Source: a virus. From it: a DNA stretch of 64,000 bases. How positions within the stretch are numbered: position 1 is the first letter of the stretch; every line of letters begins with the position of its first letter. The stretch covers positions 1 to 64,000 of IMG/VR virus record IMGVR_UViG_3300046011_004498; one strand, 5' to 3'. The notes beneath the pieces were generated by a model. The model was not told the DNA's origin. It ran no database searches and saw only the letters and a list, made by a program, of their open reading frames with translations. Shown in pieces: positions 1 through 39,174 of the stretch. The position numbers were made by a program, and so were the translations under genes.

Positions 1-32
1 AGACCACCGTTAGGTGGCGAGGGCCTCGGGTA

Positions 33-476
33 TTAACCGATGAACGACTTCTTCTGGCGGTTAGCCGGAGGAGTAGCCACGACATCATCCTTCTTGCGAT
101 AGATGGTGACGTAGAGCGGCAGGACACGGGTTTCACCCGGCTCCATCTTGGACAGAGCCTCCAGCTTCAAGTCCTCCAGGAACTCGTTCGATTCGGCCTG
201 CTTGTTGGCGAACTCGACAGTGCCGGCCTTACGGGTGTCCGGGTTCATGTTGTCCAGACCCGTCATCTGGGGCAGATTGACGAGGTCAGTGGCCGGGTTG
301 AAGTCTTCCGACTGCGGATCAACACCGTCACGCAGGGTGCCGATGTTCAGGTAGATGGTGGCACGATCACGAATCGGAACCACATTGTTGGCGCCATTGG
401 CTCCAACGTTAGCCAGAGCATTCATCGAAGCAGCGATGACAGCGGGATCGAAGGTCGAACGCGGGGTAGAGGACAT
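33..476 (-). CDS. N4 gp2/Drc-like ssDNA-binding activator of phage RNAP II
   Basis: YLNIG...VNLP..GLD..and MEPGE...LYVTIYR segments resemble N4 gp2 as recalled. ATG at 476 with GGAG SD, directly downstream of a hairpin promoter. Confidence 0.75.
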   Translation of the reverse strand: MSSTPRSTFDPAVIAASMNALANVGANGANNVVPIRDRATIYLNIGTLRDGVDPQSEDFNPATDLVNLPQMTGLDNMNPDTRKAGTVEFANKQAESNEFLEDLKLEALSKMEPGETRVLPLYVTIYRKKDDVVATPPANRQKKSFIG

Positions 477-510
477 GGTAGTCTCCAAAGTAAGATAAGG
501 GCAAAATCGC

Positions 511-530
511 CCAGACGACACGAAGTGTCG
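511..530 (-). promoter_or_regulatory. vRNAP hairpin promoter (drives the gp2-like gene), predicted +1 at 512
   Basis: Template (+) strand reads CC-AGAC-GACAC-GAA-GTGTC, the N4 geometry of +1 C, 4 nt, 5-bp stem and C-GNA-G triloop. Confidence 0.85.
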
Positions 531-852
531 CCTTTGAACAGAGAGTAGGGTCACTGTTCAGCCGAACAGAGTGCGTGACCTCATGATATTTGCGAATTTT
601 CCCACACCTCTGTGGACACAAACAGCGCATTAGTCATTCCTCACGGGTATGAGGCTGTCGCTTACAATGGTGAAGTATTCCCGCTTCACTAAGGCTTATC
701 GACTCTTTGGTATACACACTCTGCTCGGCTGAGCAGTGAAGGAAGCCTTGATGGACCGAAGCCCATCAAGGGTATCCTGCCTCGAACAGGATAAGATGCT
801 ACGTGCTGCCATTACAGCAGCTAGTTCATAACAACCTCCTGAGATATCACTC
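531..852 (-). ncRNA. Putative ~320-nt structured early ncRNA of unknown family
   Basis: At least 8 tandem hairpins whose G-U pairs form only on the minus strand, a C(UUCG)G tetraloop, its own vRNAP promoter and no convincing CDS. Confidence 0.65.
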
Positions 853-870
853 AATCGGCACGAAGTGCCG
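851..870 (-). promoter_or_regulatory. vRNAP hairpin promoter, predicted +1 at 852
   Basis: TC-AATC-GGCAC-GAA-GTGCC; the stem covaries with the other two copies (GGCAC/GTGCC vs GACAC/GTGTC). Confidence 0.8.
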
Positions 871-873
871 TAA

Positions 874-1080
874 TTAACGGTAAGTTCTGTGGTTCTTCCT
901 GATGTGTTGGAGCACAGCAGTACGAACACGAGCAGGAGAACCGTCCAGTTGAGCAATGAGACGCTCAACTTGAACTCGTTCAAAAGGCATCAGATCAGCC
1001 TTACGGTCGAGAACGAGAGGTTCAGCAACAGATGTTGCTCTCACCCCATAAGGTGAGTGGATGGTTTGAGCATGTGTCAT
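874..1080 (-). CDS. Early hypothetical protein
   Basis: ORF with AAGGA SD in the early operon. Confidence 0.65.
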   Translation of the reverse strand: MTHAQTIHSPYGVRATSVAEPLVLDRKADLMPFERVQVERLIAQLDGSPARVRTAVLQHIRKNHRTYR

Positions 1081-1187
1081 TGATTCAGTCCTTCTGGTTC
1101 AGGATTGATGGTTGGGTGGTGCTTCAGGGGAGACCAGTTCATCATAGCGCGTGCTAGAACTGTATCTCCCCCTTGGCATCGAGGCTG

Positions 1188-1397
1188 TTACCAGCCAGCG
1201 ATGAAGAAGGCTACGATCAGGATGATCAAGCCAATGATGCACTCACAGGCAGCGCCATAGCACTGTTCAGCGGTAGGTTGTCTCGATCTAACCCAATGGT
1301 AGAAGGGACGAATGACGAGAAACAGACCGATGGGCATCAGTATGAGGCCAATAATGAGCTTGGCCCATTCGATGATGGAGATGATGGTGACGAGCAT
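1188..1397 (-). CDS. Small early membrane protein (2 TM)
   Basis: Two hydrophobic segments, SD, operon context. Confidence 0.65.
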   Translation of the reverse strand: MLVTIISIIEWAKLIIGLILMPIGLFLVIRPFYHWVRSRQPTAEQCYGAACECIIGLIILIVAFFIAGW

Positions 1398-1402
1398 GGT
1401 GT

Positions 1403-1618
1403 TCAGTCCTTGCTGTGAAGCTCTTCTATGAGTTCACGAATGAGGGGTTTGAGATCGTCCACAGTCTCAGCCTCTTCGAGGCGTTGAAGTCTGATGGACA
1501 GTTGGTCTTGAGCTTGCTCTTGGGCCTGATGGTCACGCCAGTGGTCACCGCATAGGTGAAGAGTGCCACTGGCTACACAGGCGTGTTGAGAGCAGCGTTT
1601 GCACTTGATGAACCGCAT
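1403..1618 (-). CDS. Small early protein with possible Zn-binding motif (CxxC...C..H)
   Basis: CKRC..HAC...HLCGDH. Confidence 0.6.
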   Translation of the reverse strand: MRFIKCKRCSQHACVASGTLHLCGDHWRDHQAQEQAQDQLSIRLQRLEEAETVDDLKPLIRELIEELHSKD

Positions 1619-1621
1619 GGC

Positions 1622-1714
1622 TCAGCCAGTGATGATGTGGTGCCAGCCGATGAGCTGGAGACCGATGAAGGCGATCAGCAGAGCTGCTGTGTCGTACTTG
1701 TTCCAAGTCTTCAT
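1622..1714 (-). CDS. 30-aa membrane peptide (not in ORF track)
   Basis: MKTWNKYDTAALLIAFIGLQLIGWHHIITG; fills the gap between its neighbours. Confidence 0.5.
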   Translation of the reverse strand: MKTWNKYDTAALLIAFIGLQLIGWHHIITG

Positions 1715-1720
1715 GGTGGT

Positions 1721-2164
1721 TCAGACCTTGATGTTGAGGTGATTAATGGAGGCAGAGATGCAAGCTTCAAGCTCGGCATAGTCAGCTTGATAGATACTTT
1801 GACGCTTGAGATCGTCAGGATGAATCAGGTGAGGATCAGGAGTGTTGCACGCATCAATCATGCCCCAGAGTTCAGGCGTCATCCAAGGGATTGACGCTCT
1901 GTTCTCTTTACTTGGAACAGGAGTATCGAGGTCATCCTGAAAGGGATCGATGTCAGCAATGCTCTCATCTTGATGAATAAGTACATCGGCAACGTGTTCA
2001 AACGTGCTGATCACGATGACAGTGAGTACGACGAAGCCCATGAAGATCATGGCTGTACCAGAGATCGTGGGTGCCATGTTGGAGGTGGAAGATGCTCCGA
2101 TGAAGGCTACGCCTAGAGCAATGATGCAGATGCATACGATGATGCCGAGGGCACGAGAGAGCAT
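1721..2164 (-). CDS. Early membrane protein (2 N-terminal TM, acidic tail)
   Basis: ORF track; hydrophobic N-terminus. Confidence 0.65.
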   Translation of the reverse strand: MLSRALGIIVCICIIALGVAFIGASSTSNMAPTISGTAMIFMGFVVLTVIVISTFEHVADVLIHQDESIADIDPFQDDLDTPVPSKENRASIPWMTPELWGMIDACNTPDPHLIHPDDLKRQSIYQADYAELEACISASINHLNIKV

Positions 2165-2168
2165 GGGT

Positions 2169-2315
2169 CTATTTCCTTCTGAAGAGGGCAGAACGGCAGA
2201 ATGCCTGAACTGCGATGAAAATGTAGCCTACACAGGCAAGAGTGATGCCTGTTGCGAGGAATAGAGCGAATGGATTGTGGTGTGCTTCAGTGAAGCAAGC
2301 GATGATCAAGTCCAT
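2169..2315 (-). CDS. 48-aa membrane protein (not in ORF track)
   Basis: MDLIIACFTEAHHNPFALFLATGITLACVGYIFIAVQAFCRSALFRRK, GGAG SD. Confidence 0.55.
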   Translation of the reverse strand: MDLIIACFTEAHHNPFALFLATGITLACVGYIFIAVQAFCRSALFRRK

Positions 2316-2432
2316 AGTAGGCTCCAATGAACACGGATTGATGTTTTAAGGACAGATTAAGGGTGAGAGTAGGGTCTCACACTCTATCGGTTGTAGTCCT
2401 TGGCCCCCAGCCCGGAGGCTGAGGGCTTGAGG

Positions 2433-2708
2433 TCAGGTTGCGGTGGAATCCTCAGCGATGATGGCTTCGAGGAACTCCTTGTTGGAGTTGTAGAGCTGTA
2501 CTTGAGCAGGTGAGAGGCCTGCGTGCCACATGGAGTGGGCAGTTTGGGCATTGGTGAGCTTCTCGTTGTGCTCTTGCACACGGAGTTTGGAGGCAACGCC
2601 CAGTTGGAGCTTGATGTCAGCGAGCTTTGCTTTGTGTTTGAGCTCAGCGATGGCGACATTGTTGGTGATGCCAGTGGAGATGGCACGAGAGATGGTCATG
2701 AGAGCCAT
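2433..2708 (-). CDS. First early gene (positional equivalent of N4 gp1)
   Basis: First ORF after the outermost vRNAP promoter, AAGGA SD; sequence homology uncertain. Confidence 0.55.
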   Translation of the reverse strand: MALMTISRAISTGITNNVAIAELKHKAKLADIKLQLGVASKLRVQEHNEKLTNAQTAHSMWHAGLSPAQVQLYNSNKEFLEAIIAEDSTAT

Positions 2709-2737
2709 GGTGTGTGTCCTTGATCAAGGGATTAGTC

Positions 2738-2756
2738 CCAGTAGACACGAAGTGTC
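2738..2756 (-). promoter_or_regulatory. vRNAP hairpin promoter (outermost), predicted +1 at 2739
   Basis: CC-AGTA-GACAC-GAA-GTGTC on the template strand. Confidence 0.85.
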
Positions 2757-2937
2757 GTGGTAAATAGGTGGGGTGGTGTGTGTTATAGGTGTTATCATGT
2801 ATGGGGGGGTACATTTGTGTTATGGGTGTTATGTACCCATACCCCTAAACCAGAACATAACTATCAACTTTACCCTAATGTTTTCATATAATATGAAACT
2901 CTTTCCCCTTTCACCCCTATCTAAAATATAAAATATA
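2757..2937. other. Probable genome terminus / terminal repeat region
   Basis: Non-coding, upstream of the first early promoter; switches from GT-rich to AC-rich; inverted repeats GGGTACAT/ATGTACCC and TTTCATAT/ATATGAAA. Confidence 0.5.
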
Positions 2938-3273
2938 TTAATCCCATCTACCACTTTGACCGAACACTGTTCGCTGTACATACGCTGGGTTCTCAGTATC
3001 GAATTGCTCTACTCTACTGAAGTCTAAGACTTGGATGGTATTATCATCGTGTCTCTTCCATACTAATGCCCAAGATTCATCATCATTGGTTCCAGCTACA
3101 TCTACGCTGATGTTGTAGGGTGTAATGAAGTTAGTAGATACTAACTGTGAACCAGCACCATCACATTCATTGCATGTGATCTTGGATAAAAAGAGCATAT
3201 GGGTTTCTCCTCCCTCAGGAGTAATCATCCCTTTACCCTCACAGTTACTGCAAGTTACGGATACTATGCTCAT
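2938..3273 (-). CDS. DnaJ-type zinc-finger hypothetical protein
   Basis: CSNCEGKG and CNECDGAG (CxxCxGxG twice). Confidence 0.65.
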   Translation of the reverse strand: MSIVSVTCSNCEGKGMITPEGGETHMLFLSKITCNECDGAGSQLVSTNFITPYNISVDVAGTNDDESWALVWKRHDDNTIQVLDFSRVEQFDTENPAYVQRTVFGQSGRWD

Positions 3274-3274
3274 A

Positions 3275-3604
3275 TTAGCTCTCTTTATTAAGAGTGTTAT
3301 CGAGTGCTACTTCAACATCTTCGATAGACTGAAGAGTATCTCCAGCCCAGATTCCAATGCACTTGTAGAGGACAGTGGGTCTTGTCCTGCTAGTTGATGC
3401 AGGATCACGTATAGTAATGATTTCAAGATCATAATCCCTTAATTGTCTAATTATTCCCTTACGGTTTGTCTCCTTTAAACCAGGGAAGTTAATGGCTTCG
3501 CCTTGAACCAAGCGGTCATAATATCCCCTAAGTTTGCTACCTTCTCTAGGTTTGGACTGCTTAAGTTGATGGTTCCCTTTGATACTTCCTGCACTCAGAC
3601 GCAT
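3275..3604 (-). CDS. Basic hypothetical protein, possibly DNA-binding
   Basis: ORF in a tightly packed operon. Confidence 0.6.
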   Translation of the reverse strand: MRLSAGSIKGNHQLKQSKPREGSKLRGYYDRLVQGEAINFPGLKETNRKGIIRQLRDYDLEIITIRDPASTSRTRPTVLYKCIGIWAGDTLQSIEDVEVALDNTLNKES

Positions 3605-3792
3605 GGGGAGTCTTCATCAAAGTAGCTATCGAATGGTCCGCCTACGGCTTCTTCCCACTCATCATGTTCGTCTAAGTCTTTCATACGCTTGGTAAGCGCA
3701 GCCTTAAACATCTCAGGAGTTACATCCTCTCCTTTGGGATTATTGCTAAGTACGGAGAAAGCTACTGTGAATGCGTGGTTATATTGGCCCAT
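3595..3792 (-). CDS. Hypothetical protein
   Basis: ORF with GAGG SD inside a 12-bp stem. Confidence 0.65.
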   Translation of the reverse strand: MGQYNHAFTVAFSVLSNNPKGEDVTPEMFKAALTKRMKDLDEHDEWEEAVGGPFDSYFDEDSPCV

Positions 3793-3874
3793 AAGTTGCC
3801 TCGTCCCTTACTTAGTTGGTTGGGGGTTTATGTAATGTCCTGACGAGGCAACTGGGCTCTCGGTCACAGACCAT

Positions 3875-3926
3875 AAAAAGAGACCCCCTGCTTCAGTCCT
3901 TGTCGGGCTGAGCCTTGGGGGTCTCT
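3875..3926 (-). terminator. Extended terminator-like hairpin
   Basis: AGAGACCCCC/GGGGGUCUCU stem, inner GCUCAG/CUGAAGC helix, followed by a U tract. Confidence 0.6.
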
Positions 3927-4140
3927 CGTCCAGCCGCTAAGCTGGTTTGGACTGCTGCGGTTGACAGCTGGCTCGGCCTCGTCTCAGGCCAGAGCACCGT
4001 ATCATCCCCGGTGCCAAGGGCGCAGACCTTTTCGATGTCGCATGTCGTTGGGCTCTGTTTCAGTGCTTCACCCACTTGGCACACTAGACGTTCTCGTCTG
4101 TCAGTTAGACGGGGCCTTTATCAGGAACCACCTGATAATC
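3927..4140 (-). ncRNA. Putative multi-domain structured RNA
   Basis: Nested helices UGACAG/CUGUCA and GUGCCAAG/CUUGGCAC plus several hairpins; GC-rich; no credible CDS. Confidence 0.55.
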
Positions 4141-4148
4141 TTCCAAAC

Positions 4149-4207
4149 AAAAAGACCCCGACATAAACAGGGTAACACGTACTCCTGCTCCCTATGTCGG
4201 GGTCTTT
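4149..4207 (-). terminator. Extended terminator-like hairpin
   Basis: 15-bp AAAGACCCCGACAUA/UAUGUCGGGGUCUUU stem followed by U residues. Confidence 0.6.
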
Positions 4208-4298
4208 GCTCAATTGTAGGATACCAGTGAACGACTCACTTGGAACACTGTCTCCCCTACTTTCAATTGATGTCGGGCCAGTGAGGGCCACATCCAAT

Positions 4299-4330
4299 AA
4301 AAGAAACCCCAGTTTTCACTGGGGTTTCTT
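4299..4330 (-). terminator. Intrinsic terminator
   Basis: AAGAAACCCCAG/CUGGGGUUUCUU stem plus U tract. Confidence 0.7.
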
Positions 4331-4457
4331 CATAGAAGAGTATTGTTTTCGACAGATGGAGCTCAGATCGCATTGCTGAAGCCAGCCTTAGGCCAGTAGT
4401 CTTCGTATGCCGCTGTCATATATCCATAAGCTACTTAATAACTCTCTCTATTCAATA

Positions 4458-4533
4458 TGGTAGAAGAGATAGGACTTGAACCTATAACCTCCACGTTATG
4501 AGCGTGGGGCTCTAACCATTGAGCTACTCTTCT
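4458..4533 (-). tRNA. tRNA with CAU anticodon (Met elongator or Ile2)
   Basis: Cloverleaf: AGAAGAG acceptor, CCACG-CT-CAT-AA-CGTGG arm, TTCAA T-loop, encoded CCA. Confidence 0.92.
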
Positions 4534-4723
4534 ATAAAGAACTACAAAAGACGCCCCTTCCCGGAGTGCGTTTGAATGAAAACTCTTGTAGCTCTTCACT
4601 AAAGAGGCCCCAGACCTAAGCAGTTCTCAGCTAATGATCTAGGGCCTCTCGAAGGTTGGAGGGTCTTATTCTCCCGGCACCTTCCTGCCGATCCGAACTC
4701 CATGCAAGCATGGTGTCGAATAG

Positions 4724-4799
4724 TGGTGCTGTCTGTAGGGATCGAACCCACGACACCCAGTTTACAAAACTGGCGCTCTACCAACTGAGCTAAGACAGC
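4724..4799 (-). tRNA. tRNA-Thr(UGU)
   Basis: Cloverleaf, CCAGT-TT-TGT-AA-ACTGG arm, GTTCGA, CCA. Confidence 0.95.
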
Positions 4800-4804
4800 A
4801 ATAA

Positions 4805-4881
4805 TGGCGATCACATCAGGACTCGAACCTGAGACCCTCTGCTTAGAAGGCAGATGCTCTATCCAGCTGAGCTATGTGACC
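4805..4881 (-). tRNA. tRNA-Arg(UCU)
   Basis: Cloverleaf, TCTGC-CT-TCT-AA-GCAGA arm, GGTTCGAG, CCA. Confidence 0.95.
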
Positions 4882-4892
4882 AAATACAGAAG

Positions 4893-5011
4893 TGTTGGTT
4901 TAATGTTACTTGACGTTTCCCGCGTACACCCATCGGAAGAGCACAACGATTTGATCTAACTATCACAAGTTAGACAATAACATTACTTTGATTTCCTGCG
5001 TTAAACCAACA
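4893..5011 (-). ncRNA. Putative ~120-nt structured RNA between tRNA-Leu and tRNA-Arg
   Basis: Closing stem UGUUGGUUUAA/UUAAACCAACA, inner UAAUGUUA/UAACAUUA helix and two hairpins. Confidence 0.5.
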
Positions 5012-5045
5012 AATTGACAGGAGGAGGACTGGCTCTCCGATCTTT

Positions 5046-5131
5046 TGGTGCGAGCTAAGGGACTCGAACCCTTACACCATTACGATAACAGATTTTAAGT
5101 CTGGTGCGTCTACCAGTTCCGCCAAGCTCGC
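5046..5131 (-). tRNA. tRNA-Leu(UAA)
   Basis: Class II cloverleaf with long variable arm, CT-TAA-AA loop, CCA. Confidence 0.93.
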
Positions 5132-5266
5132 AATAGACTTTAATTCTTTGGAGGAGGGAACAGTCGCTCATTGCCCTACAACAGCGCCTGTTCCCTCAAC
5201 TCCTTATCCCCCCGCACACCCTCATAGAGTGCGAGGCGATTCTTCTGACCTATCTTTTTAGATTGG

Positions 5267-5566
5267 TCAATTAACTTTCGATCTCAAAGGCTTTCGATCT
5301 TCATCAGAATCTTCACCTTCTTCCTCCTCTTCAGGCTGAGACGGAACGACCGGGTCCAAGTCGGAGGGCGAAGCCCGTAGACGCTGGACCAAAGGGAGTT
5401 TCGGCCAGCCGGGATAACCATTGAACCAAAGTACGTTCTTCTTCCTGAACCAATGACGGTGTGTTGCTTGGGTCTGACCTGAATTCACGGTGGCTGGAAC
5501 CAACCGGGAAAAAGGAATCAACGATAAAGTCAACGCTGTTACGAAAACACCGACATCTTTGAGCAT
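5267..5566 (-). CDS. Hypothetical protein with N-terminal hydrophobic segment and acidic tail
   Basis: ORF with GGAG SD. Confidence 0.55.
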   Translation of the reverse strand: MLKDVGVFVTALTLSLIPFSRLVPATVNSGQTQATHRHWFRKKNVLWFNGYPGWPKLPLVQRLRASPSDLDPVVPSQPEEEEEGEDSDEDRKPLRSKVN

Positions 5567-5789
5567 GAGCTCTCTCCGTTATTGGAGACTGATTGTTGAT
5601 ACAGCTTGTCTTTCTTGTCTAGCACAAACTTCAATCATAGTTATATATAGTATAGACACACAAGACACACTTCCCCCGTTTCTCTTCTCTAGTAAATTAG
5701 AGAGAGTGGCCCTCGTCACATCCTGTGGACACGCGCCTTAAACAGACCTAGAGACCAAAGGGCAAGCCAAAAAAAGGAGCACCTTGCAA

Positions 5790-6056
5790 ATGTCTGATGA
5801 AGAACACGCTGGCCTTCCCGTCGCAGGATATCGCCCTCAGGGTGATGTCTACATTCGCACCGTTAACGCCAATAAAATTACCGAGGAAAAAATCCTCAGA
5901 ACAATCGACGATCTGCGAAATGAGAAAGCCCCTGATGGTGGTCTGATCCGCGTTGACCAGAGATGGCTGTCGATTGCCACGACCCAACTGGAACAGGGCT
6001 TCATGGCTCTGAACCGGGCAATCTTCCAACCGACAAGGCTTGAGGGAGAGCTCTAA
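5790..6056 (+). CDS. acb2: Acb2-like anti-CBASS cyclic-nucleotide sponge
   Basis: GYR near the N-terminus and RWLSIATTQLEQGFMALNRAIFQP at the C-terminus match the Acb2 pattern as recalled (GYR...[24 protein letters not shown]); ~90 aa; AAGGAG SD. Confidence 0.8.
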   Translation: MSDEEHAGLPVAGYRPQGDVYIRTVNANKITEEKILRTIDDLRNEKAPDGGLIRVDQRWLSIATTQLEQGFMALNRAIFQPTRLEGEL

Positions 6057-6232
6057 AAACAAAGGAGGCGGGGAGTAACAGGGATGACCAGTCCCTTCTC
6101 CCCGCCTCAGCGTGTTCTCGTCCGGGAACCCAAGACCAGACGAACAGCGGCCCAACCATCTCACAGGCAGACAAGTCTTGTATGGCGGTCACTACTCTTA
6201 GATTCAAATACAAATAGAAGAGGTTGCCTCCA

Positions 6233-22740: not shown

Positions 22741-22780
22741 AAAAAGAAAGCTCCTCACATATTGTGGGGAGCTTTTTTTC
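22741..22780 (+). terminator. Intrinsic (probably bidirectional) terminator upstream of vRNAP
   Basis: AAAGCTCCTCAC/GTGGGGAGCTTT stem with flanking A and T tracts. Confidence 0.75.
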
Positions 22781-22826
22781 TGATACAGAAGACGGGTTAT
22801 CCTGCATTTGCACGGGCCGTTATATT

Positions 22827-25800
22827 ATGTCGAACGAACGTTTCCTTTCAGCAGTTCCTCAAGAAGCTGTAGAACCTGACTATTATAATGTAGGTGCTGC
22901 AAGATACCGAGGTAATGGATCGTTAGTTCCGAACGAACGCTTCCAAGATGCCCGCACAATGAATGCGGATGAGTTGGTAGCAAAATACGGCGAAGAGCAG
23001 GGCTTACAAATTCTTCGAGCTCGTGCAGGTGGGGATGCCTCTTTTCACGGAGATTTAGCATCTACTCGTTCAGGTCTTGCCCCTATAACAGATACAGCAG
23101 GTAGTGCTGCTACTGCTCTGTTTGGTGGATTAGGTGGTATTGCTGCTCTCGGTACTGGTCTTGTTAATCAAGATGCAGGTGTTGGTTTAGCAGACATCGT
23201 AAATGAAAATAGTGCTTGGGCCAGAGAGAACCAATCCTATGCTTTGAATGCACGACGTAGAGCGTCAGCTGCACAAGCAAATGTTAGTTCTGCTGATAAC
23301 CAAGCACGTTATGAACAAGAGCGAGAAGATGGTGAGGGTTTAGCCACTATCAGACGTATTGGTCGTAACTTTGTTGATCAATCTGCCATTACTGTCAGCG
23401 ATGGAATGCTGGTAACAGACAGTGTTGCTCAGGGCGTTGGTTCACTTGCTGGTGGTGGTGTAGTTTCCGGTGGCTTGAAAGCAATTGGTAGACAAGCTCT
23501 TACACGTTTTGGAGCTGGTCGTTCTGCTGCTGTAGCTATTGCTCAGCCTCGTGTTTACGATGCAGCTGTCGCTACTGGTCGAGTTCTCGACCGTAGTCGT
23601 ATGTCTTTAGCTATTGGTGCGCTTGAGGGTGGTGGTGCTTACACAGGCACAATCGATCAAGTGATGGCAATGTCTCATGATGAGCTTCTTGAAAGCTCTC
23701 AGATGTACAGAGAGCTTATTGATGCTGGTATCAATCCAGCCAGAGCAAAAGCTAGAGTTGCTAATAGAGCCGGTCAGATAGCTGCTGCAATCCAAGCACC
23801 TATCGGTGTAGCAACTGGTGCTTTAGTATCTAAGTTTGAAGCCAATCCTTTACGTGCTGGCTCATTCTTAACTGGTGCTTCTAACGTTCTTAAAGAGACA
23901 GTTGAAGAAGGTATTCAATCTGGTTCAGGCCAGTTTGCCCAAAACGTTGGTATTAGGTCTGCGGCAGATAATGAATATAACTTAAGCCAAGGTGTCGGTG
24001 AAGCTTCTGCTGAAGGAGCTATCGCTGGTGCTGGTACAGCAGGTGTGTTTGCTGGTCCTTCGGCAGTTATGGGTACAACAAGAGATTTAGCCCAAGGTGC
24101 TGCTGATTTAACTAGAAGACAGATTGATTCTCTTATTAATAAAGGAAGAGAAGAAAACAATCGTAATAGTGTTGATGCTCAAGCAGAGATTTCAAACGTT
24201 GTTAGAGCTGCTGTAGCTCCTAAAGTTTATGTTCCTACACAAACTGAAGGCATTGATCCTATCGATGATGAAGCTGAATTTACTACATACCAGAATGACT
24301 TAGCTGCTTTGGGTCAGCAGTTTGGGTTTGATCCTCAAACTTATGAACCAAAGACAGAAGCTGAAGCACGTCTGTTAGGTAGTATTCCTGCCGAGGAAGC
24401 TTCCAACATTATTGATGTGATGCAAGCAGCTGCCAATAGAATGGCAGAGCAAGATGCTACACCTGAAGAACGTCTTGAACTGGCTCTGTTTATTCATGAA
24501 CAACAGAACAGAATTACACCTGAGAATCTTGAAGCTGTCAGAGCATTACAGGCTAAAGTAACACCCGGTGGTGCTATTGCTAATGATCTGAAAACAATCA
24601 TTACTGCTCAAGCAGCTATTACAGACAACATCCTTTTCAAGGATAGTCTTGAAGCTGCGCTGAAATCTGTACCTCCGATAAAGGTTGAAGATGTTGAAGA
24701 TATTTCGACGCCGGAAGGTCAAAGGGCTGCAAGGACGGGTGCCCTTCAAACTATGCTCTTCCCGGAGACCGTACCCCAAGAAGTTCTCGACAGACTGTTC
24801 AAACACTCTGAGAATGACGATGCAGGCGAAATCTTTACGCCGCAGCAAAAGGTCGCTCTTCGTACCGAAGCTATGCTCTCAAAGACGCTCCAAGCGTCCA
24901 CAGCTGCCGCTGAAGTCTTGGGTGTTAAGCCTCCCGAAGCATCTCGTGTAGCCTTTGAAATCCAGTCTGCTGATGCTCAGGAAGCTGGCTCAGCAGGGCC
25001 ATCTGTTCGTGCTCACACAGAAGGTGTGAACAGACTGAAGGCCATGGGTGACACTGCTGGTGCAGCTGAAATGCTGGCTGAGTTTGGTAACTTTGCTCAG
25101 CACATGGCTAACAAATTAGCTGCTGTGAATGAGTCGTTCGTTGGTCGTACTGAAAAGAACTATAATCCTGAAGTTTTTTATCAAGCCTACAATAGAAAAA
25201 CTAAGGAATGGTACACACCCAAAAAGGGTTGGACTGTTGCTCGTTTTGGTAAGAATCTGAAGTCAATTGTGGATTCTCAGCAGATTGGTATCGATGCTGA
25301 GTACACTATTGATTCGTATAACCAGTTAGTTGCAGAAAATCCTGAACTTGGTCTTAAGCCTGTTGAAGCTATCCGTATGGATTCTGGGCTTAAAAAGATT
25401 GCTGATCAGGTGTTCAAAGATGCTAAGAAAGCAGACTTTGATGAAAAGAATCCTGATATTGTAGCTAAACGTAGTGAATCTACTACAATTGAAACAAAAC
25501 AACAAAATAATACAACAGATACTAAATCAACTGAAAAGAAAGTTGAACCTGTTGTAGAGCCAGATATCAAACCTTCTGTTGTTGTTGATGATCTTAAGAA
25601 TGAATCTATTCCTACTCTCGTTGCACTTCTGAAAGAAGTACAAGAACTTAAGGATGAAGTTAAGTTTGAACGAGTTGCATCTGAACTTCGTGTTCGTAAA
25701 CTTGAAGCTGAAGCAGCAAAAAATGCTGCTCAAGTTCAAGCAGCTGAAGTAGTCGCAGAACCGAAGGCGGAGCCGGAGGTTCAAGCGACGGAAGAAGCTG

Positions 25801-28800
25801 CGCCTGTTGAAAAGAAAACTACTTCTATCAAAGAAGAGTTTCCTGATCTGATCCAATCTACATCTGGAGAGAACCTGCTTCTTGATGGCTTCTCCCTAGA
25901 TGGGGAAAGTCAGACTCGTTTGGTTGGTGAAGGTGCTATTGCATTAGAAGATGTCATAGCAGCGGTAACCAATTCAGATGCTTTTGCAGAGATTACTGAA
26001 GAGCCTGAAGCAAAGCTTTCTGGTGATGTCACTCGTGCGTACAGCAAAGTTATGGGTGCTATTCGCCTCCCAATTTACACCCGGTTAATGGCTAGGTTTG
26101 CTGGAAGACGACTGAAAAAGAACGAGAAAATCTTTACGCCTGTTATGGATGGCAGAACGCCTTTGGATAAGAGTGATCCTCTTGGGATTGCCAACACCGA
26201 AGCACGCCTGCTCAGCTTGATGGAACGTAAAGAAGACGGTTCTCTGAACTATAACGACAAGATTCTGACAGCAGGCTTACTGGCCTTAGCCGATTGGTTG
26301 GCTCAGAACAGTGTAACTTCGCCTCATAGAGATGCCGACAGTGTTGCAAGATCACTTAATCTTACTCGTCAACCTATGTTGGTTGATGAGGAACTGGTGA
26401 ATGCATTTAATAAAGGTACTAATATTACGATAGCACAACGTTCATTAGCTAATAAGATTGAAAGATATCTTGGTCTTAAAGCAAATGCAGACGTTCCTAT
26501 TGGTCTTTCTCATGGTGTGACCTTAGGCTTTGCTGCTGAACTTCTTCGTGCAGCTGTTGAAGCAAAGTTTGTTCAGACTGAATCTGTTTATAAGTCTGAT
26601 GAGTTTAACTTTGTGTTTGTTAACGTGAACACAGATGAATTAGGTCTTGCTAAGTATGGGCAAGAAGGACCTAACTTTAAGGGTCAAACCAGACTCATTG
26701 AACGTATCGTCACAAATGATGAGAGAGCGGTTGGGTTTGCTCTGAAGCCTTCCGGTTTTGCTAAGAAAAAACAGAAGGGTGGTAATGCTGTTACGACGCC
26801 CGAGCAGATGGATACAGAGGTTCGTGAAAACGCTGTAGGTCACGGACTGAACATGCCTGTGTACGAGCGTTACGCACGCCTTGGTCCTGATGGTATGCTG
26901 CGCCTGTTTGGTAATGGTGTGCTGCCGCCTACCATGAACAAGAACACAAGGCTGTCCAAAGAGAGCCAGAATACTTCTGTGAAGGGAGCCTTCCAGACGA
27001 TCTTAGGTCTGATTGATCAGATGCAGACGGCTGTTAGTACAGCTACTTCTGCCGCTGAACTTAAAGATATTCGTGTGTATTATGAGTACATCTTTACCTC
27101 TGTAAATCGTATGCAGCAGCAAGCTGCTTACGGGAACCAATCATCTAAGATGGTTCGAGAGGTTCTGACTCCTAACGGTAACGTTGTAGACTTATCTTCT
27201 ACAGACACTGCTGATTATCAAATGTGGCGTAGAGGTCTGGCTCAGGCTTTAGGTATTAAAGTTGAACTCCAGTTTGATAGTGTCTGGGATGCTAACTTAG
27301 AGAAAATCTTGCAAAGCGAAGAAACACAGAAAGCTGTTTCTATGCTTCAAAACTATACCAATGTTGAGCCAAATGCTCTCATTGATGCTGTGAAGGATGT
27401 ATTCCGCAATAAGAATAACCCTCTAATTGATCCTGAAGTTCCTGAAGTAGGGTTCCATGCTTTAGTATCTTACGCCGATTATCTGACAGCTAAAGCGAAC
27501 GGAACAGCATCTGCCTTTACCACTCACATCTATGTGGAAGCAGACGGTAAAGTGGACGGTGCCACTAACTCGCTGTTCTATATGAGACTGGGTGGTTTTG
27601 ATCTTGAGATGATTGAAGCCCTGACAAGAGGTGGTTTCGACTTCAGCAAGACACCTATCTCATTGGCTCAAACCTATGAGCCTAATGCAGAGGGTGTTGT
27701 TCCCGGAGATGCATATCAAGTCAGTGGTGTTCGCACTGGTGTCTATATGCAGGAGACAATCCAGAATGTGATTTCCAAGGCTAATGATTCTGCTCAAAAG
27801 TCTAAGCTTATCAATCAAGTTGAGGCAATGAACATCGTCATGACAACGCTGCTTGGCTCTAAGGAGTTCAGGTATAAGCGAGATGGTGAGCAGTGGAATT
27901 TCGAGATCGGTCGTGGGCAGCTGAAAAACCCCATGACAATTACTGTCTATGGTTCAGGTGTTAAGGGCATTGCTGACAAAGTAGCCAAAGAGCTGGCTGG
28001 TAAATTGTATGAAGAAATTTCCAGAGCCAATGCATTAGCTGTTCAGAATAAACAGCCCGATAACTGGGCTACTTTCATGTTCTATGATGGTGGTAAATTT
28101 ACAGAAAGTGCCACTAAATCTGTGACATTCTGGAAAGCTCTTGATGTTCTGACTTCTGCAAGTGTTCGTAGTTTCACCGACGATGGTGGTCAGCAGAAAT
28201 ATTATACCAAGAAAATGGATGAAGCCCGTGCTCCGGGAACTTCAACATCTGCTGTTCAGTACACACTGAAAGCTCAAACTTTAGAACTGTTGTCTGATAC
28301 AATTAGACAGTTCTACGTAAGGCCAATGGTTGATGCTATCAACAAGGAGATGGGTTCATCTATTGATGGTTCTAAGTTGATTCAAGAATCAACAAACTTA
28401 CTGTCCTCGTTAGCTAGAGCAGCATTTGATCGACTCATCGCAGTTGAGATGCAGAAGATCAAAAACAAGAGCGATGGTCTGTCTCCTAACCAGATCAAAA
28501 CCATCATGTCTAAGGTAGCTTTCCTGCTTCCTTACATTGAAGGTGATGAGATCAATATCAACGTTAAGGGACTGGAGATGTCCCCAATTAACGTAATTGA
28601 TCCTAAGACAGGTAAACCAAGCAGAATTCCATACGCATCGACCATGAATGGTCCTATTTTCACGCAGTTGGAAATTCCTACACCGCAGATCGCAGGTGTG
28701 GCTGGTGGTTCATATCTGAACATTGCTTATGGTGATGGTCGTATGATCATCAAGGCTTCCCCCGGTCTGATCGGTGGTCGTCTTATGATCTTCGACGGTA

Positions 28801-31800
28801 TCAATCTGTCGATTAAAGATGCGATTGCAAATGGTGTAGCTATTAACAAAACTACGCTTGATGCCATTCAGTCTGGGACACCGTTCTCTGACTTGATGAA
28901 AACGTTCAAAGAACTTACTGAATCATTCAACTTAAGTGTCTTTACTGAAGAAGAATTGAACAGTGTTGTTGAAAATAACACTGCTGATGAATACAATTTA
29001 CCTGATGAACTGACACCTTCTGATTTTGTTGAAGGTCTTATCTTTAGTCTGACAAACAGACTTGATCTTGCATCTAAGCAAGAGCGAGCTCGTCAGGCTA
29101 CGTTGAAGCGTGTTCACCTGTCTTCAGACCACATGGCAGCAATCAATGCTCCTGCGTCTACGGCTGCTGACAATAGCCGTGAAGACCTTGGTGCTTTGAC
29201 TCCTGAAGAGAAGGCAAAACGTCTGAATGAAATCTACGAGGAAGAGCTCGCTAAGATTGAGAATGCACCTGTAGTCAAAGACAACACTTCTGAGAACATC
29301 AGTAGTGCTTTCGACAACTTGCCTAAGCATGAGACTGGAGTTCGTATTACGAACACAGCTCAGCTTACTGAACAATTGAGCAGCCTTAATCTTCCTAGAG
29401 AGCAAGCTACACTCATCAATCGTGCTTTGATCGCTCTGAAGAATGATAACTGGACGGTCGTTATTGGTTCCAAGAGAGCAGCTACAGATTACCTTACAAC
29501 AAGAGGTATCCGTCACACCTTCAAGAAGGGTGACAATGGTATTGCTGCTCCGGGTCAGAAACTGATTGTGGTGGCTAATGGTTCGTCTGAGACTTTGGCT
29601 CACGAGCTTATCCATGCTGCGACCTTTGATAAGGTAGATGCATTCTTCAGTAACCCTGAAGTGCTGGAACCAGCTGTAAGAGCTGCTTTAGAACGTCTGG
29701 TTATTCTACAAAATGAATGGCTTAGTGCCACTTACTTACGCAAAGTGAACGGACCTGACGACACTGTGCTTCATGCAAGAGCAGCTATTGAAGGCTTCTT
29801 GAGAAAGGGAGATCAGTCGTCTGCTTTGAATGAATTCATGGCATGGAACTTGGCTAACCAAGGTCTGATGAATCTGAACTCTAAGATCAAAGTTGAAAGC
29901 AAGCTGGCTCGTATCACCAGAGAGATGGTTTCTCTGCTTAAGCGTATGTTCTCTCTGCCTGACAATAATGATCGTATGGATTGGAACATTCGTTTCAACT
30001 CCTTGATTGTTATTGGCAGCAAGCCACTTACACCCACCCTTCAAGCAGCTAATCGAATTCTTCAGCACTCTACTGGGACTCGTCCTGATCTGGATGACAT
30101 CGCTCAGAAGATGGCTAAACTTGTTGGTCGTGCTGATATCAATCCTGAGCTTATGAAAAAGCTCAAGATTAAACCTAGTGAAATGGCCTTAGCTTATGGT
30201 GAAAATGCAGCCATTATTGCTAAAGCTAATGGCTTTGACATGAGTAACGAAGAACAACGTGCTTTCGTTATGATGGTTGCTGCTTATCATGCGAACCAAA
30301 TTGCTGATCCCACCTTCAACGTTAAAATGAATAACTACTACAGCGAAGTGCTGGAGCAGTTAGACCAAAACGTTATGATGATGGACAGGGATTCTAAAGA
30401 CCCAGCAGAAGCTGCACGCGCTGATATGCGTTACGATATCCTGCGTGGTAAGTTCGATATGGGAGTCGATATGCTTGCTGTGTTTGTGGCCTTAGGCGCT
30501 ACAAACGAGATTGCTCAAACGCTCTTCAGTCGTATTCGCGTCAGAGACAAAAAGCTGTCCTTACAAGGTAACACTGTTGACAGTGTGCTGCGTAAGGATG
30601 GCGCAGCCCTGATCGATAAGCTGATGGATAACTCCTACAGCCTTCGTCCAAATCAGAAGATTGGTGATGAAGTTCTTAAGCTGGCTGTAGCTATGGTTGA
30701 GAAATCTGATCGTGAGCAAGGACTTCTGAACAAAGCTTTCGGTGAAACTGGTAACTTTGTTCGCAAGGCTAACGACAAGCTGGCGGACACCATTTCCTAC
30801 GGCTTAGGGAAGACTGCTGACGCGATCCAACAAGGAATCGATGCCTCGAAGGGTACATCCTTAGAGGGCGTTGTAGGACCCCTTGGAGACGTTCTGAAGC
30901 TGGGTGTCGAAGTCATGGATAAAGCTAGAACGCAGGATGCTGTGTCTAAGCTGACTTCCATGCTTAACAGCAATGATATTCATCCTGAAATCAGAAGCAT
31001 CATTGTAGAACTTATGGGTTCTAATGAAGATAACCAGACTATCTTTGAGCTGATCAAAAAGGGTCGAATGGTTATCGATAAAGTTCGTCAGGCATTCTTG
31101 AAGGGTATGCCTAAGCAAATCAAAGATAAGTTTACCAGAACTCTGACTAAAGAAGAGTGGGCTGCTCAGCACTTTGCTTATGGTCAATCTGACATCTCTG
31201 TTCTGTTGGATCAGAAGATGTCTATTGAAGGTATCATTGATCTGTTTGCTACACCGTCTTCTATTCCTCAGCTTCTGTCTCAGAAGGAAGCTGAAGTTAA
31301 GAGACTGTTTGGTAATCAAGCTAACACTATCCTGAAGGAATCGTATGATCTTGCACAAATGATGGATCGTGGTCGTCCTTCAAATGGATTGGTTAAGCGT
31401 AATGCTCTGGCAATTGCTAACCGCGCAGGTGAAGCGACAGTTGGTACATTTGACATTCTGAGCCCAGAAACCAAGGCAATCGACGGATATGTGTCCTTGT
31501 TGGTTCTGTCTCGTATGCAACCAGATATGATGAACACACTCAGCACTTTAGCTAAGACTGAGCGTGTTGGTATGGAGTATGCATTAGCTCTGGTGGCTCA
31601 AGCTCGCGCACATGAGATGAAGCGTGTTCCTGAGCGTCATAAGTACAATATCAACAAGGGCTATATGCCCACTGAAAAGCTTGGTTCGTTTAAGGCTGTG
31701 CCTTACGATAAAGTTAATGAGTATACCAAGGTTGGGTATAAGATTGTTGGTAGTAGAACTATTGGTGCTGTCGAAGGTCTGTATGATAATGGAAAACAAC

Positions 31801-38473: not shown

Positions 38474-38500
38474 GAGGTAACTCCTTCAAAAGAAAAGGCC

Positions 38501-38641
38501 CTAGGTAAACCTAGAGCCTCTCTTTATGAAGCTATTCCACATCAATGCGATGGGAATTGCCAGCAATACAAGAATCAAAGCTAATACTGCGAGAGCTCCC
38601 GCTAAAGCTATGATCCTTTGAACGAGCCTGAACCGGCTCAT
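38501..38641 (-). CDS. 46-aa membrane protein (not in ORF track)
   Basis: MSRFRLVQRIIALAGALAVLALILVLLAIPIALMWNSFIKRGSRFT. Confidence 0.45.
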   Translation of the reverse strand: MSRFRLVQRIIALAGALAVLALILVLLAIPIALMWNSFIKRGSRFT

Positions 38642-38649
38642 TGCTGGGG

Positions 38650-39174
38650 TTACTCAGCCGAGGCCGAGTTATTCGGACGGGTCAGACCCGCGAACAGCTT
38701 CGAGCGAGCAGGAGCAGAGGCTCCAGCATCGGCAGCTTCTTCTTCCGAGGAAGCTTCAGCAACCACTTCTTCGACTTGCTCTGCTTGGACCGGAGCAACT
38801 TCAGCCGGAGCTTCAGTTTCTTCAGCAGCAGGAACAGCCGACTCCAGAACAACTTCAGCCTTGGGAGCTTCGCTTTGTTCAATAGGAGCACTCGACGCAG
38901 TGACCGAGGTGATGATTCCATCTTCACCACGAGTCGCCCGGAAGGAGATTGCGAAGTGATTGAAGGAAGCATTCACGGTCTTACGAGCGTGAGCAATGAC
39001 AGCCTGACGGATCATGGATTCCGAAACAGTGACCTCAGCAGTCAGACCCTTGGGGGCACGACCCGATGTATATTCAAAATTCAGTTCCCGCAGGAGTCGG
39101 GGCAGTTCAGCAGCAATAGCTGCATTCAACGCTGCTTGGTTCAGCGTGAACGACATAGAGTTCTTGTCGGACAT
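38650..39174 (-). CDS. N4 gp47-like hypothetical protein
   Basis: F.ATRG.DG motif, Ala/Glu linker, C-terminal KLFAGL. Confidence 0.65.
   Translation of the reverse strand: MSDKNSMSFTLNQAALNAAIAAELPRLLRELNFEYTSGRAPKGLTAEVTVSESMIRQAVIAHARKTVNASFNHFAISFRATRGEDGIITSVTASSAPIEQSEAPKAEVVLESAVPAAEETEAPAEVAPVQAEQVEEVVAEASSEEEAADAGASAPARSKLFAGLTRPNNSASAE

Follow-up and report, generated by a model that had tools for sequence, protein, structure and literature searches.

The early region and its promoters

The DNA analysed here, hereafter the window, comprises bases 1-64000 of a 72,847-bp virus record. The phage is an uncultured lake-water relative of N4, as had originally been predicted, with an ORF of vRNAP size (3545 aa) located at 22764-33401. 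The sequence occurs in DNA runs from lake and river metagenomes, and no RNA run was among the sequencing runs listed as containing it. About 124 nt are repeated at the contig ends (window 1-127 against genome 72721-72847, the first 3 bases being unlike), and from this overlap the record was read as circularly permuted, with a partial terminal repeat as the alternative; the record itself is classed as linear. The early genes are encoded on the minus strand and run from ~2750 to the first base of the contig, the series being resumed at its opposite end. The features described below are on this strand.

The sequence CACTTCGTG occurs exactly three times in the 64 kb, always on the minus strand (2746-2754 in P1, 859-867 in P2 and 519-527 in P3), each copy within a 5–6-bp stem with a TTC loop, the loop centre being followed by a G at a distance of 11 nt. 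N4-type early promoters are described as inverted repeats that form a 5–7-bp stem with a 3-nt loop (PMC4496689, PMC9163698), and those of N4 have the hairpin centred at -11, with a purine at -11, G at -10 and C at +1 on the template (PMC4496689). P2 (856-870, CGGCAC-TTC-GTGCCG, 6-bp stem, loop centre 863, predicted start G852) and P3 (516-530, CGACAC-TTC-GTGTCG, 6-bp stem, loop centre 523, predicted start G512) both follow the stem-loop rule for vRNAP early promoters. They also follow the base rule, with T863/C862 and T523/C522 on the non-template strand and G852 and G512 at +11 from the loop centres, while the template -8G of N4 is unmatched in both (A on the template here). The layout of P2 resembles that of the hairpin at 557-573 of N4, in front of gp2. 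P2 and P3 are thus well supported by sequence as promoters, presumably used by the vRNAP, and the two flanking promoters of the original prediction are upheld. Outside the window, at genome ~67963-67977 on the minus strand, CGCGAC-TTC-GTCGCG forms a further hairpin of promoter type, again followed by a G at 11 nt; given this hairpin at ~67970, the early region would cross the contig junction and contain at least four such promoters. Just upstream of P1 on the minus strand lies a tandem 32-nt purine/T-rich direct repeat (2764-2832, 75% identical, 37 nt apart), which may be near the true genome end.

Upstream of P2, a 68-aa early gene (874-1080) ends 4 nt before the P2 hairpin, and a terminator scan (hairpin plus T-run) from this gene to P2 detected no site. 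Homologues of the gene occupy the same place in two related metagenome contigs, L002 (3009-3203) and L003. In two contigs from sequencing runs, X5 and X7, the match to the window ends at 1093 and the same unlike sequence lies beyond, which marks a mosaic breakpoint at this plus-strand coordinate, just upstream of the 68-aa gene.

Downstream of P3 is a 147-aa gene (33-476) that is a homologue of N4 gp2. The protein has 27 homologues, which carry a PF26984 tag; hhalign matches the profile of this family to N4 gp2 (probability 89%, E 2e-6, 91 columns), and the protein itself matches phrog_4099 (1.2e-11). N4 gp2 is described in PMC4496689 as a single-stranded-DNA-binding cofactor that recruits N4 RNAPII to middle promoters. 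The unit ends in a terminator that starts at 1-32, a long GC-rich hairpin followed by five T's, and that is completed across the contig junction, where genome ~72715-72760 repeats and completes the hairpin. The order of promoter P2, gp2 homologue and strong terminator is that of the same unit in N4. Between the P2 start at 852 and P3 at 530 the terminator scan detected no site; the single minus-strand terminator-like site is 512-499, just downstream of the P3 hairpin. This site corresponds to a GGGC...GCCC hairpin (499-512) formed by the first bases transcribed from P3, just before the Shine-Dalgarno of the gp2-like gene, and the hairpin is found at the same place in L002. The element under study, 531-852, thus lies between a start and a gene on the same strand with no intervening terminator, P3 intervening in this window, and contains no internal terminator of the kind that would yield a 5'UTR-derived ncRNA by premature termination.

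A cmscan search against Rfam 15 (window 1-6000, both strands, E ≤ 10) gave no match in 531-852, in line with the initial impression that the RNA belongs to no recognised family; the only matches above gathering scores were four tRNAs, all outside 531-852. The tRNA genes (Met-CAT, Thr-TGT, Arg-TCT and Leu-TAA) lie at 4458-5131 on the minus strand. The adjoining region 4026-4351 gave sub-threshold matches to BSnc120 (34 bits, E 2.9e-5) and BjrC68 (24 bits), scores far under the gathering scores; it lies in a 322-nt segment that ranks among the five most structured of the genome scan described below on both strands, and may be another structured RNA.

Architecture of the element

The eight hairpins originally listed were all recovered in place on the minus strand. 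From the predicted start, the RNA begins with a multi-hairpin 5' domain (741-852). A purine tract, AGGAGG (835-840), pairs with CUUCC(U) at 741-746, and is followed by a mini-ORF, ATG AAC TAG (821-829), and by three hairpins: hairpin 1 (805-821) with a UAA loop, hairpin 2 (773-793), which is confined to this lineage, and hairpin 3 (746-771), with 11 bp and a cUUCGg loop.

The 5' domain is followed by two arms, A (714-739) and B (551-576), which constitute an inverted repeat of 26 nt with 88% complementarity (25 of 26 pairs with G-U counted) and form a long helix present in both the MFE and centroid structures. Each arm also has a local alternative fold, CUGCUC-AGCC-GAGCAG in arm A and CUGUUC-GGCU-GAACAG in arm B, and the corresponding pattern CTGYTC-N4-GARCAG occurs without mismatch in the 64 kb only at these two arms. 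RNase III processing sites are helices of about two turns (~20 bp or more), and the long helix is of this order: 25 of its 26 positions pair here, and the L002 version has 19 bp. LexA (SOS) operators have inverted outer tetranucleotides with 8-nt spacing and an AT-rich centre. By comparison with the beta/gamma-proteobacterial operator consensus, which may not be that of the host, LexA-type spacing and outer bases are present at arm B (554-569) and in its L002 counterpart, with a GC-rich centre; arm A deviates from this layout.

At the apex of the long helix is a 137-nt inner insert (577-713) containing the hairpins GUGAAG/CUUCAC, CCUCAU/GUGAGG and CCACA/UGUGG. These inner hairpins are present as predicted, but the region folds unremarkably when taken alone (z -1.2, a stability equalled or bettered by 23 of 200 shuffles). 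L002 does not have it, and it falls within a stretch, 544-740, that a further contig, X8, leaves unaligned. A kissing interaction between two adjacent loops had also been suggested; the match consists of four contiguous complementary bases plus two more across a 2-nt bulge, finds no comparative support and lies inside the non-conserved insert, and the idea was rejected.

Downstream of arm B, a third CUGUUC copy (536-541) can pair with the GAACAG of arm B in an alternative hairpin, which is the fold adopted by the isolated 3' segment 531-576. The equivalent pairing in L002, read by eye, is a perfect 9 bp. Of the switch envisaged in the original prediction, the third copy is conserved as sequence in L002, without covariation. 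Alternative pairings among the five CUGYUC/GARCAG segments could, on this model, gate a processing step.

Folding of the element

The expectation of a fold better than dinucleotide shuffles was borne out: 531-852 on the minus strand folds at -131 kcal/mol, compared with -95.8 ± 5.7 kcal/mol for 100 shuffles (z -6.2, 0/100 as good), with 68% of its bases paired. In a scan of the whole genome (451 windows of 322 nt), 484-805, which overlaps the element, ranked first on both strands (GC-corrected, -3.1 sd on the minus and -2.4 sd on the plus strand). The second and third most stable 322-nt windows of the minus strand were 38480-38801 and 5797-6118 (-3.0 and -2.7 sd, GC-corrected). The signal within the element is uneven, the 5' domain reaching z -4.1 when folded alone, compared with the value given above for the insert.

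Because the plus strand of 531-852 gives z -6.7 (-118.5 kcal/mol) and folding with DNA parameters gives z -5.5, the energy z-scores settle neither the strand nor the molecule. The absolute energy favours the gene strand, by 12.5 kcal/mol for the whole element (-131 vs -118.5). For the 5' domain, the gene strand and antisense energies are -47.2 and -35.6 kcal/mol here (a difference of 11.6), and -43.1 and -38.4 kcal/mol in L002 (4.7). This advantage is due to G-U pairs that become C-A mismatches on the other strand, and together with the cUUCGg-capped stem the G-U pairs favour an RNA of the gene strand. The dense gene-strand RNA structure that had been proposed is hence upheld by the G-U pairs, by the lower energy and by its conservation in L002, described below.

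Conservation and covariation

The relatives with readable DNA are two metagenome contigs obtained from a metagenome scan, L002 and L003, and conservation of position was counted over these two loci and four coded runs (X5, X7, X8 and X9). Ahead of the gp2 homologue, L002 has the element and all four runs have at least part of it; L003 lacks it. In L002, whose gp2 is 59% identical (142 aligned codons), a single promoter hairpin is followed by a short form of the element (z -5.9) that lacks hairpin 2, the 137-nt insert and P3. In L003, whose gp2 is 56% identical, one promoter hairpin is followed by a ~80-nt leader that is unstructured (z -1.3) and unalignable; as this similarly distant contig is entirely without the element, the element is dispensable for gp2 expression.

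Other collections were also searched. No match to window 1-3000 was detected by blastn in GenBank phages, and tblastn with the gp2-like protein against the same phages recovered only four Agrobacterium OLIVR records (32% identity), which have a 62-nt intergenic space without such an element. Scans of IMG/VR with the gp2-like protein, the 27-sequence alignment and a homologue, P0019, returned no relative; there, inspection showed all 33 loci containing the 17-nt hairpin-1 word to be unrelated, and 0 matches were obtained with an RNA pattern of two blocks. The 27-sequence alignment likewise detected no relative in a genome collection, and a locus from that collection matching the RNA pattern (L039) was discarded as a chance match with a dissimilar context.

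The distance from the promoter start to ATGAAC is 23-24 nt in both the window and L002. Both share the 17-nt hairpin 1, which is identical, AGCATCTT, the top of hairpin 3 (GGGCTTCGG), TTCACTGCTCAG..GAGCAGA, CTGTTC..CTGAACAGTGACC and the third CTGTTC. Over the leader core, 114 of 162 aligned columns are identical (70%), compared with 65.5% nucleotide identity for the gp2 coding sequence. An idea that the element might be an array of vRNAP promoters was set aside, since the two phages have the same hairpin 1 but unlike promoter hairpins.

RNAalifold analysis of the window and L002 gave 42 consensus pairs, all of which are formed in both sequences. Both-sided changes affect 8 of the 42 pairs (four in hairpin 3, one in the long helix and three in two short outer helices), with wobble changes in two more, which lie in hairpin 3 beside its four compensatory ones. 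In slid controls, with the 3' partners shifted by 1-3 columns, only 0-1 both-sided pairs were found and 29-51% of cells were paired. Covariation among syntenic relatives was one of the checks attached to the original prediction; the compensatory changes seen here are counted on a structure derived from the same two-sequence alignment, with L002 as the one full-length relative.

In the long helix, 17 pairs are kept in L002, one of them compensatory (C-G to A-U). This pair is the centre position of the local palindromes, and L002 caps the 19-bp helix with a 3-nt loop; a compensatory pair located in the palindrome loops and a three-base cap together favour the long helix over two separate hairpins. 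The indel pattern also fits a helix with a variable apex, given the cap in L002 and the 65 unread letters that stand in X8 for 544-740.

Population variants

The X5 contig (3590 nt) covers 415-1093 with 26 substitutions, 23 of them listed, and 22 gap letters. It omits 9+1+9 letters at 513-533, and the P3 hairpin is gone; this deletion is seen in one contig, at a depth of 10.9. The X7 contig has nearly all of the X5 substitutions in common and is net 19 nt shorter over 16-605, with 3 of its 21 gap letters listed. The X8 contig (1168 nt) aligns over 4-543, gapless at P3, and over 741-1012; the 65 letters between are different from those of the window and give it the length of the short form. P3 is accordingly optional in the lineage, with no counterpart in L002, a deletion in X5 and an ungapped alignment across it in X8.

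The variant lists for these contigs, which leave out 80 substitutions and 11 indels, are lower bounds, with at least 13 X5/X7 substitutions inside 531-852. Of these listed 13, eight fall in the 137-nt insert, which also carries one inserted base. Placed on the MFE structure, seven are unpaired, three keep a pair (G-U to A-U, U-G to C-G and C-G to U-G) and three break one, including G809>U in hairpin 1. With 68% of the bases paired, this pattern is weakly better than random and lends mild support to the fold.

Coding potential

The 38-aa ORF (MAARSIL...) noted in the original prediction spans 812-696. In L002 the frame survives two indels (15 and 3 nt), an outcome expected by chance in ~1 of 9 cases. 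A manual codon count against L002 gave one synonymous and at least 14 non-synonymous differences, concentrated on codon positions 1 and 2, exactly where the stems covary, and the C-termini in the two genomes are unrelated. No Shine-Dalgarno lies upstream of ATG812. Among 5.8 billion protein clusters, none shared words with the in-frame translation of 851-699, and the 38-aa and 73-aa ORFs had no match in PHROGs. The ORF evolves unlike coding sequence, as the proposal of an RNA with no protein gene implies, and was rejected as the product in view of its mostly non-synonymous change, the preserved pairing and the lack of a protein relative in these searches.

The mini-ORF has a Shine-Dalgarno-like tract 5 nt before ATG829, and in L002 a purine tract lies 7 nt before the ATG; in the consensus fold, both the tract and the ATG are base-paired. 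Position 822 changes TAG here to TCG in X5/X7, which extends the mini-ORF to five codons, as in L002, compared with two codons here and in X8/X9. The stop of the five-codon version, in L002 and X5/X7, overlaps the next ATG, a coupling layout.

A probable leader of the gp2-like gene

The element is a real, conserved and previously undescribed structured RNA, for which 'gp2 leader' is a better description than 'sole product of its promoter'. The original prediction had P2 devoted to a stand-alone RNA, which is not supported, in view of the lack of a terminator-like site between 852 and P3, the gp2 homologue downstream and the absence of P3 from L002 and X5. Where P3 is absent, P2 is the only promoter before the gp2 homologue, so the element is transcribed as its leader; judging from these layouts, the element of L002 and X5 can only be a leader of gp2 mRNA, unless the gene there has no promoter. 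In the window, P3 is present and no terminator-like site was found before it, so transcripts from P2, and read-through from P1, should carry the element. From these two arrangements, the element is read as a leader with an optional bypass promoter. P3 could also supply all of the gp2 mRNA here, in which case the P2 product might act alone.

We consider it somewhat more probable than the opposite that the element is a lineage-specific, modular, structured 5' leader of the gp2-homologue mRNA, transcribed from P2 and acting post-transcriptionally. Transcription would start at about G852 and pass first through the conserved multi-hairpin 5' domain (852-741), then through the long-range helix of 19-25 bp (714-739 with 551-576), with the poorly conserved 137-nt insert at its apex, and then, meeting no terminator, through the gp2-like gene up to the strong terminator beyond. 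P3 (start ~512) would be an optional second promoter, producing a leaderless-type gp2 mRNA with a 36-nt 5' UTR. The leader would act after transcription: a cut in the long helix, which is of RNase III size, may shorten transcripts from P2, and those reading through from P1, to a gp2 mRNA resembling that from P3, and would also free the stable 5' domain. This domain, with its Shine-Dalgarno-like tract held in a helix, might set transcript stability or translation. That a conserved ~110-nt multi-hairpin RNA, cut from the gp2 leader at the RNase III-type helix, acts in trans before any phage protein is made is rather doubtful; its partner might be a host RNA-binding protein or nuclease, or it might set the timing of the early-to-middle switch via gp2 translation.

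A discrete immediate-early ncRNA, acting in trans as a decoy, sponge or regulator while gp2 is made from P3, would agree with the full promoter between element and gp2 in this genome and with the compact, stable and conserved 5' domain, which a cut in the long helix would release. Other virulent phages provide precedents, with 29 candidates for 5'UTR-derived short RNAs reported in PMC10914365. This explanation is nevertheless unlikely: no terminator-like site was detected from the P2 start to P3, in L002 and X5 the RNA is physically the gp2 leader for want of a P3 hairpin, and L003 does without the element. It is improbable that the signal acts in the DNA, as extruded hairpins, operators, pause or termination signals, or middle-promoter hairpins like those of LUZ7. 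The z-score with DNA parameters is compatible with such a role, N4-type early transcription uses extruded DNA hairpins (PMC4496689), and LUZ7 middle promoters are GC-rich hairpins with 3–4-nt loops (PMC9163698). The CTGYTC-N4-GARCAG half-sites are kept while their 4-nt centres vary, as in an operator, and TCTGTT at 570-565 and 543-538 matches 6 of 7 positions of the T7 class II termination core (bioRxiv 10.1101/2021.01.11.426313). On the template, however, which is the strand that N4 vRNAP reads as a hairpin, the G-U pairs are C-A mismatches, and RNA is also favoured by the cUUCGg cap and by the strand asymmetry in energy of both genomes. The position of the 137-nt insert, exactly at the apex of the helix, suits an RNA helix better than two separate sites, the palindrome centre covaries across the long helix from C-G to A-U, and the palindromes occur nowhere else in the window.

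The region might also be mostly non-functional, composed of a decayed early gene start, expanded palindromes and an inserted fragment, with gp2 expressed via P3 or read-through. L003 manages without the element; the inner 137 nt are not unusually structured, are the most variable part and are missing in L002; and the 23 nt from the P2 start to the Shine-Dalgarno-like tract and ATG resemble an early gene cut down to 2-5 codons. Yet the core is slightly better conserved than the neighbouring essential gene, and pairing is kept by compensatory changes, which would not be expected of decay at 59% protein identity, while the leader of L003 is already unalignable; this explanation is very improbable. 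Most improbable of all is a peptide product, either the 38-aa ORF or the mini-ORF behind AGGAGG as a leader peptide or minigene. The Shine-Dalgarno-like tract before ATG829, its purine-rich counterpart before the L002 ATG, the coupling layout in L002 and X5/X7 and the two indels in multiples of three would speak for translation. They are offset by the ~1/9 chance of in-frame indels, by the excess of non-synonymous differences under preserved pairing, by unrelated C-termini and a mini-ORF length that varies between two and five codons, by the pairing of purine tract and ATG in the consensus fold, and by the absence of both a protein-level relative in our searches and a Shine-Dalgarno at ATG812.

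gp2 is the factor that takes N4-like phages from early to middle transcription, and a conserved, folded gp2 leader with a bypass promoter would constitute a post-transcriptional control point in an early programme so far described in terms of polymerase and promoters only. A literature search for structured early leaders or non-coding RNAs of N4-like phages found no description; if a released 5' domain did act in trans as outlined above, the Schitoviridae early programme would have its first functional non-coding RNA. The element may also represent a new RNA family, one of uncultured freshwater phages. Its importance is moderate: it belongs to one lineage, a sister contig does without it, and RNAs of its kind, structured phage 5' leaders and 5'UTR-derived RNAs, are already known.

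Comparison with known systems

RNase III processing hairpins are present in phage early transcripts such as the T7 early region and the lambda N leader. Here, too, a long, near-perfect helix stands in the leader of an early regulatory gene; it has no sequence relation to them, and its apex carries the 137-nt insert.

In N4 itself (NC_008720), a small early gene is likewise followed by a hairpin promoter with a 3-nt loop (557-573, 7-bp stem), a G start 11 nt downstream, gp2 and a terminator of hairpin plus T-run. The annotated gp2 start of N4, at 586, is only 10 nt away from the predicted start of P2 and lacks a Shine-Dalgarno, while an in-frame ATG at 685 follows GGAGAG; from this layout, N4 gp2 may be shorter than annotated, with a leader of ~109 nt. 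Unlike the element, the ~110 nt from the N4 P2 start to this in-frame ATG with its Shine-Dalgarno (576-690) fold at chance level (z -1.2), show no sequence similarity to the element and have no second promoter inside.

The 5'UTR ncRNA candidates of virulent Pseudomonas phages (PMC10914365) are structured RNAs between a promoter and the first gene that are conserved upstream of the equivalent gene, as here. They differ in having premature terminators, of which none was found in the element, and transcripts of <250 nt, and they come from phages of other families with other polymerases.

In the Pseudomonas phage LUZ7, as described in PMC9163698, two hairpin early promoters are located upstream of Drc, a single-stranded-DNA-binding activator of middle transcription, an arrangement like that of P2 and P3 before the gp2-like gene. 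The two LUZ7 starts are 33 nt apart, whereas those reported here are 340 nt apart, with a structured RNA between them.
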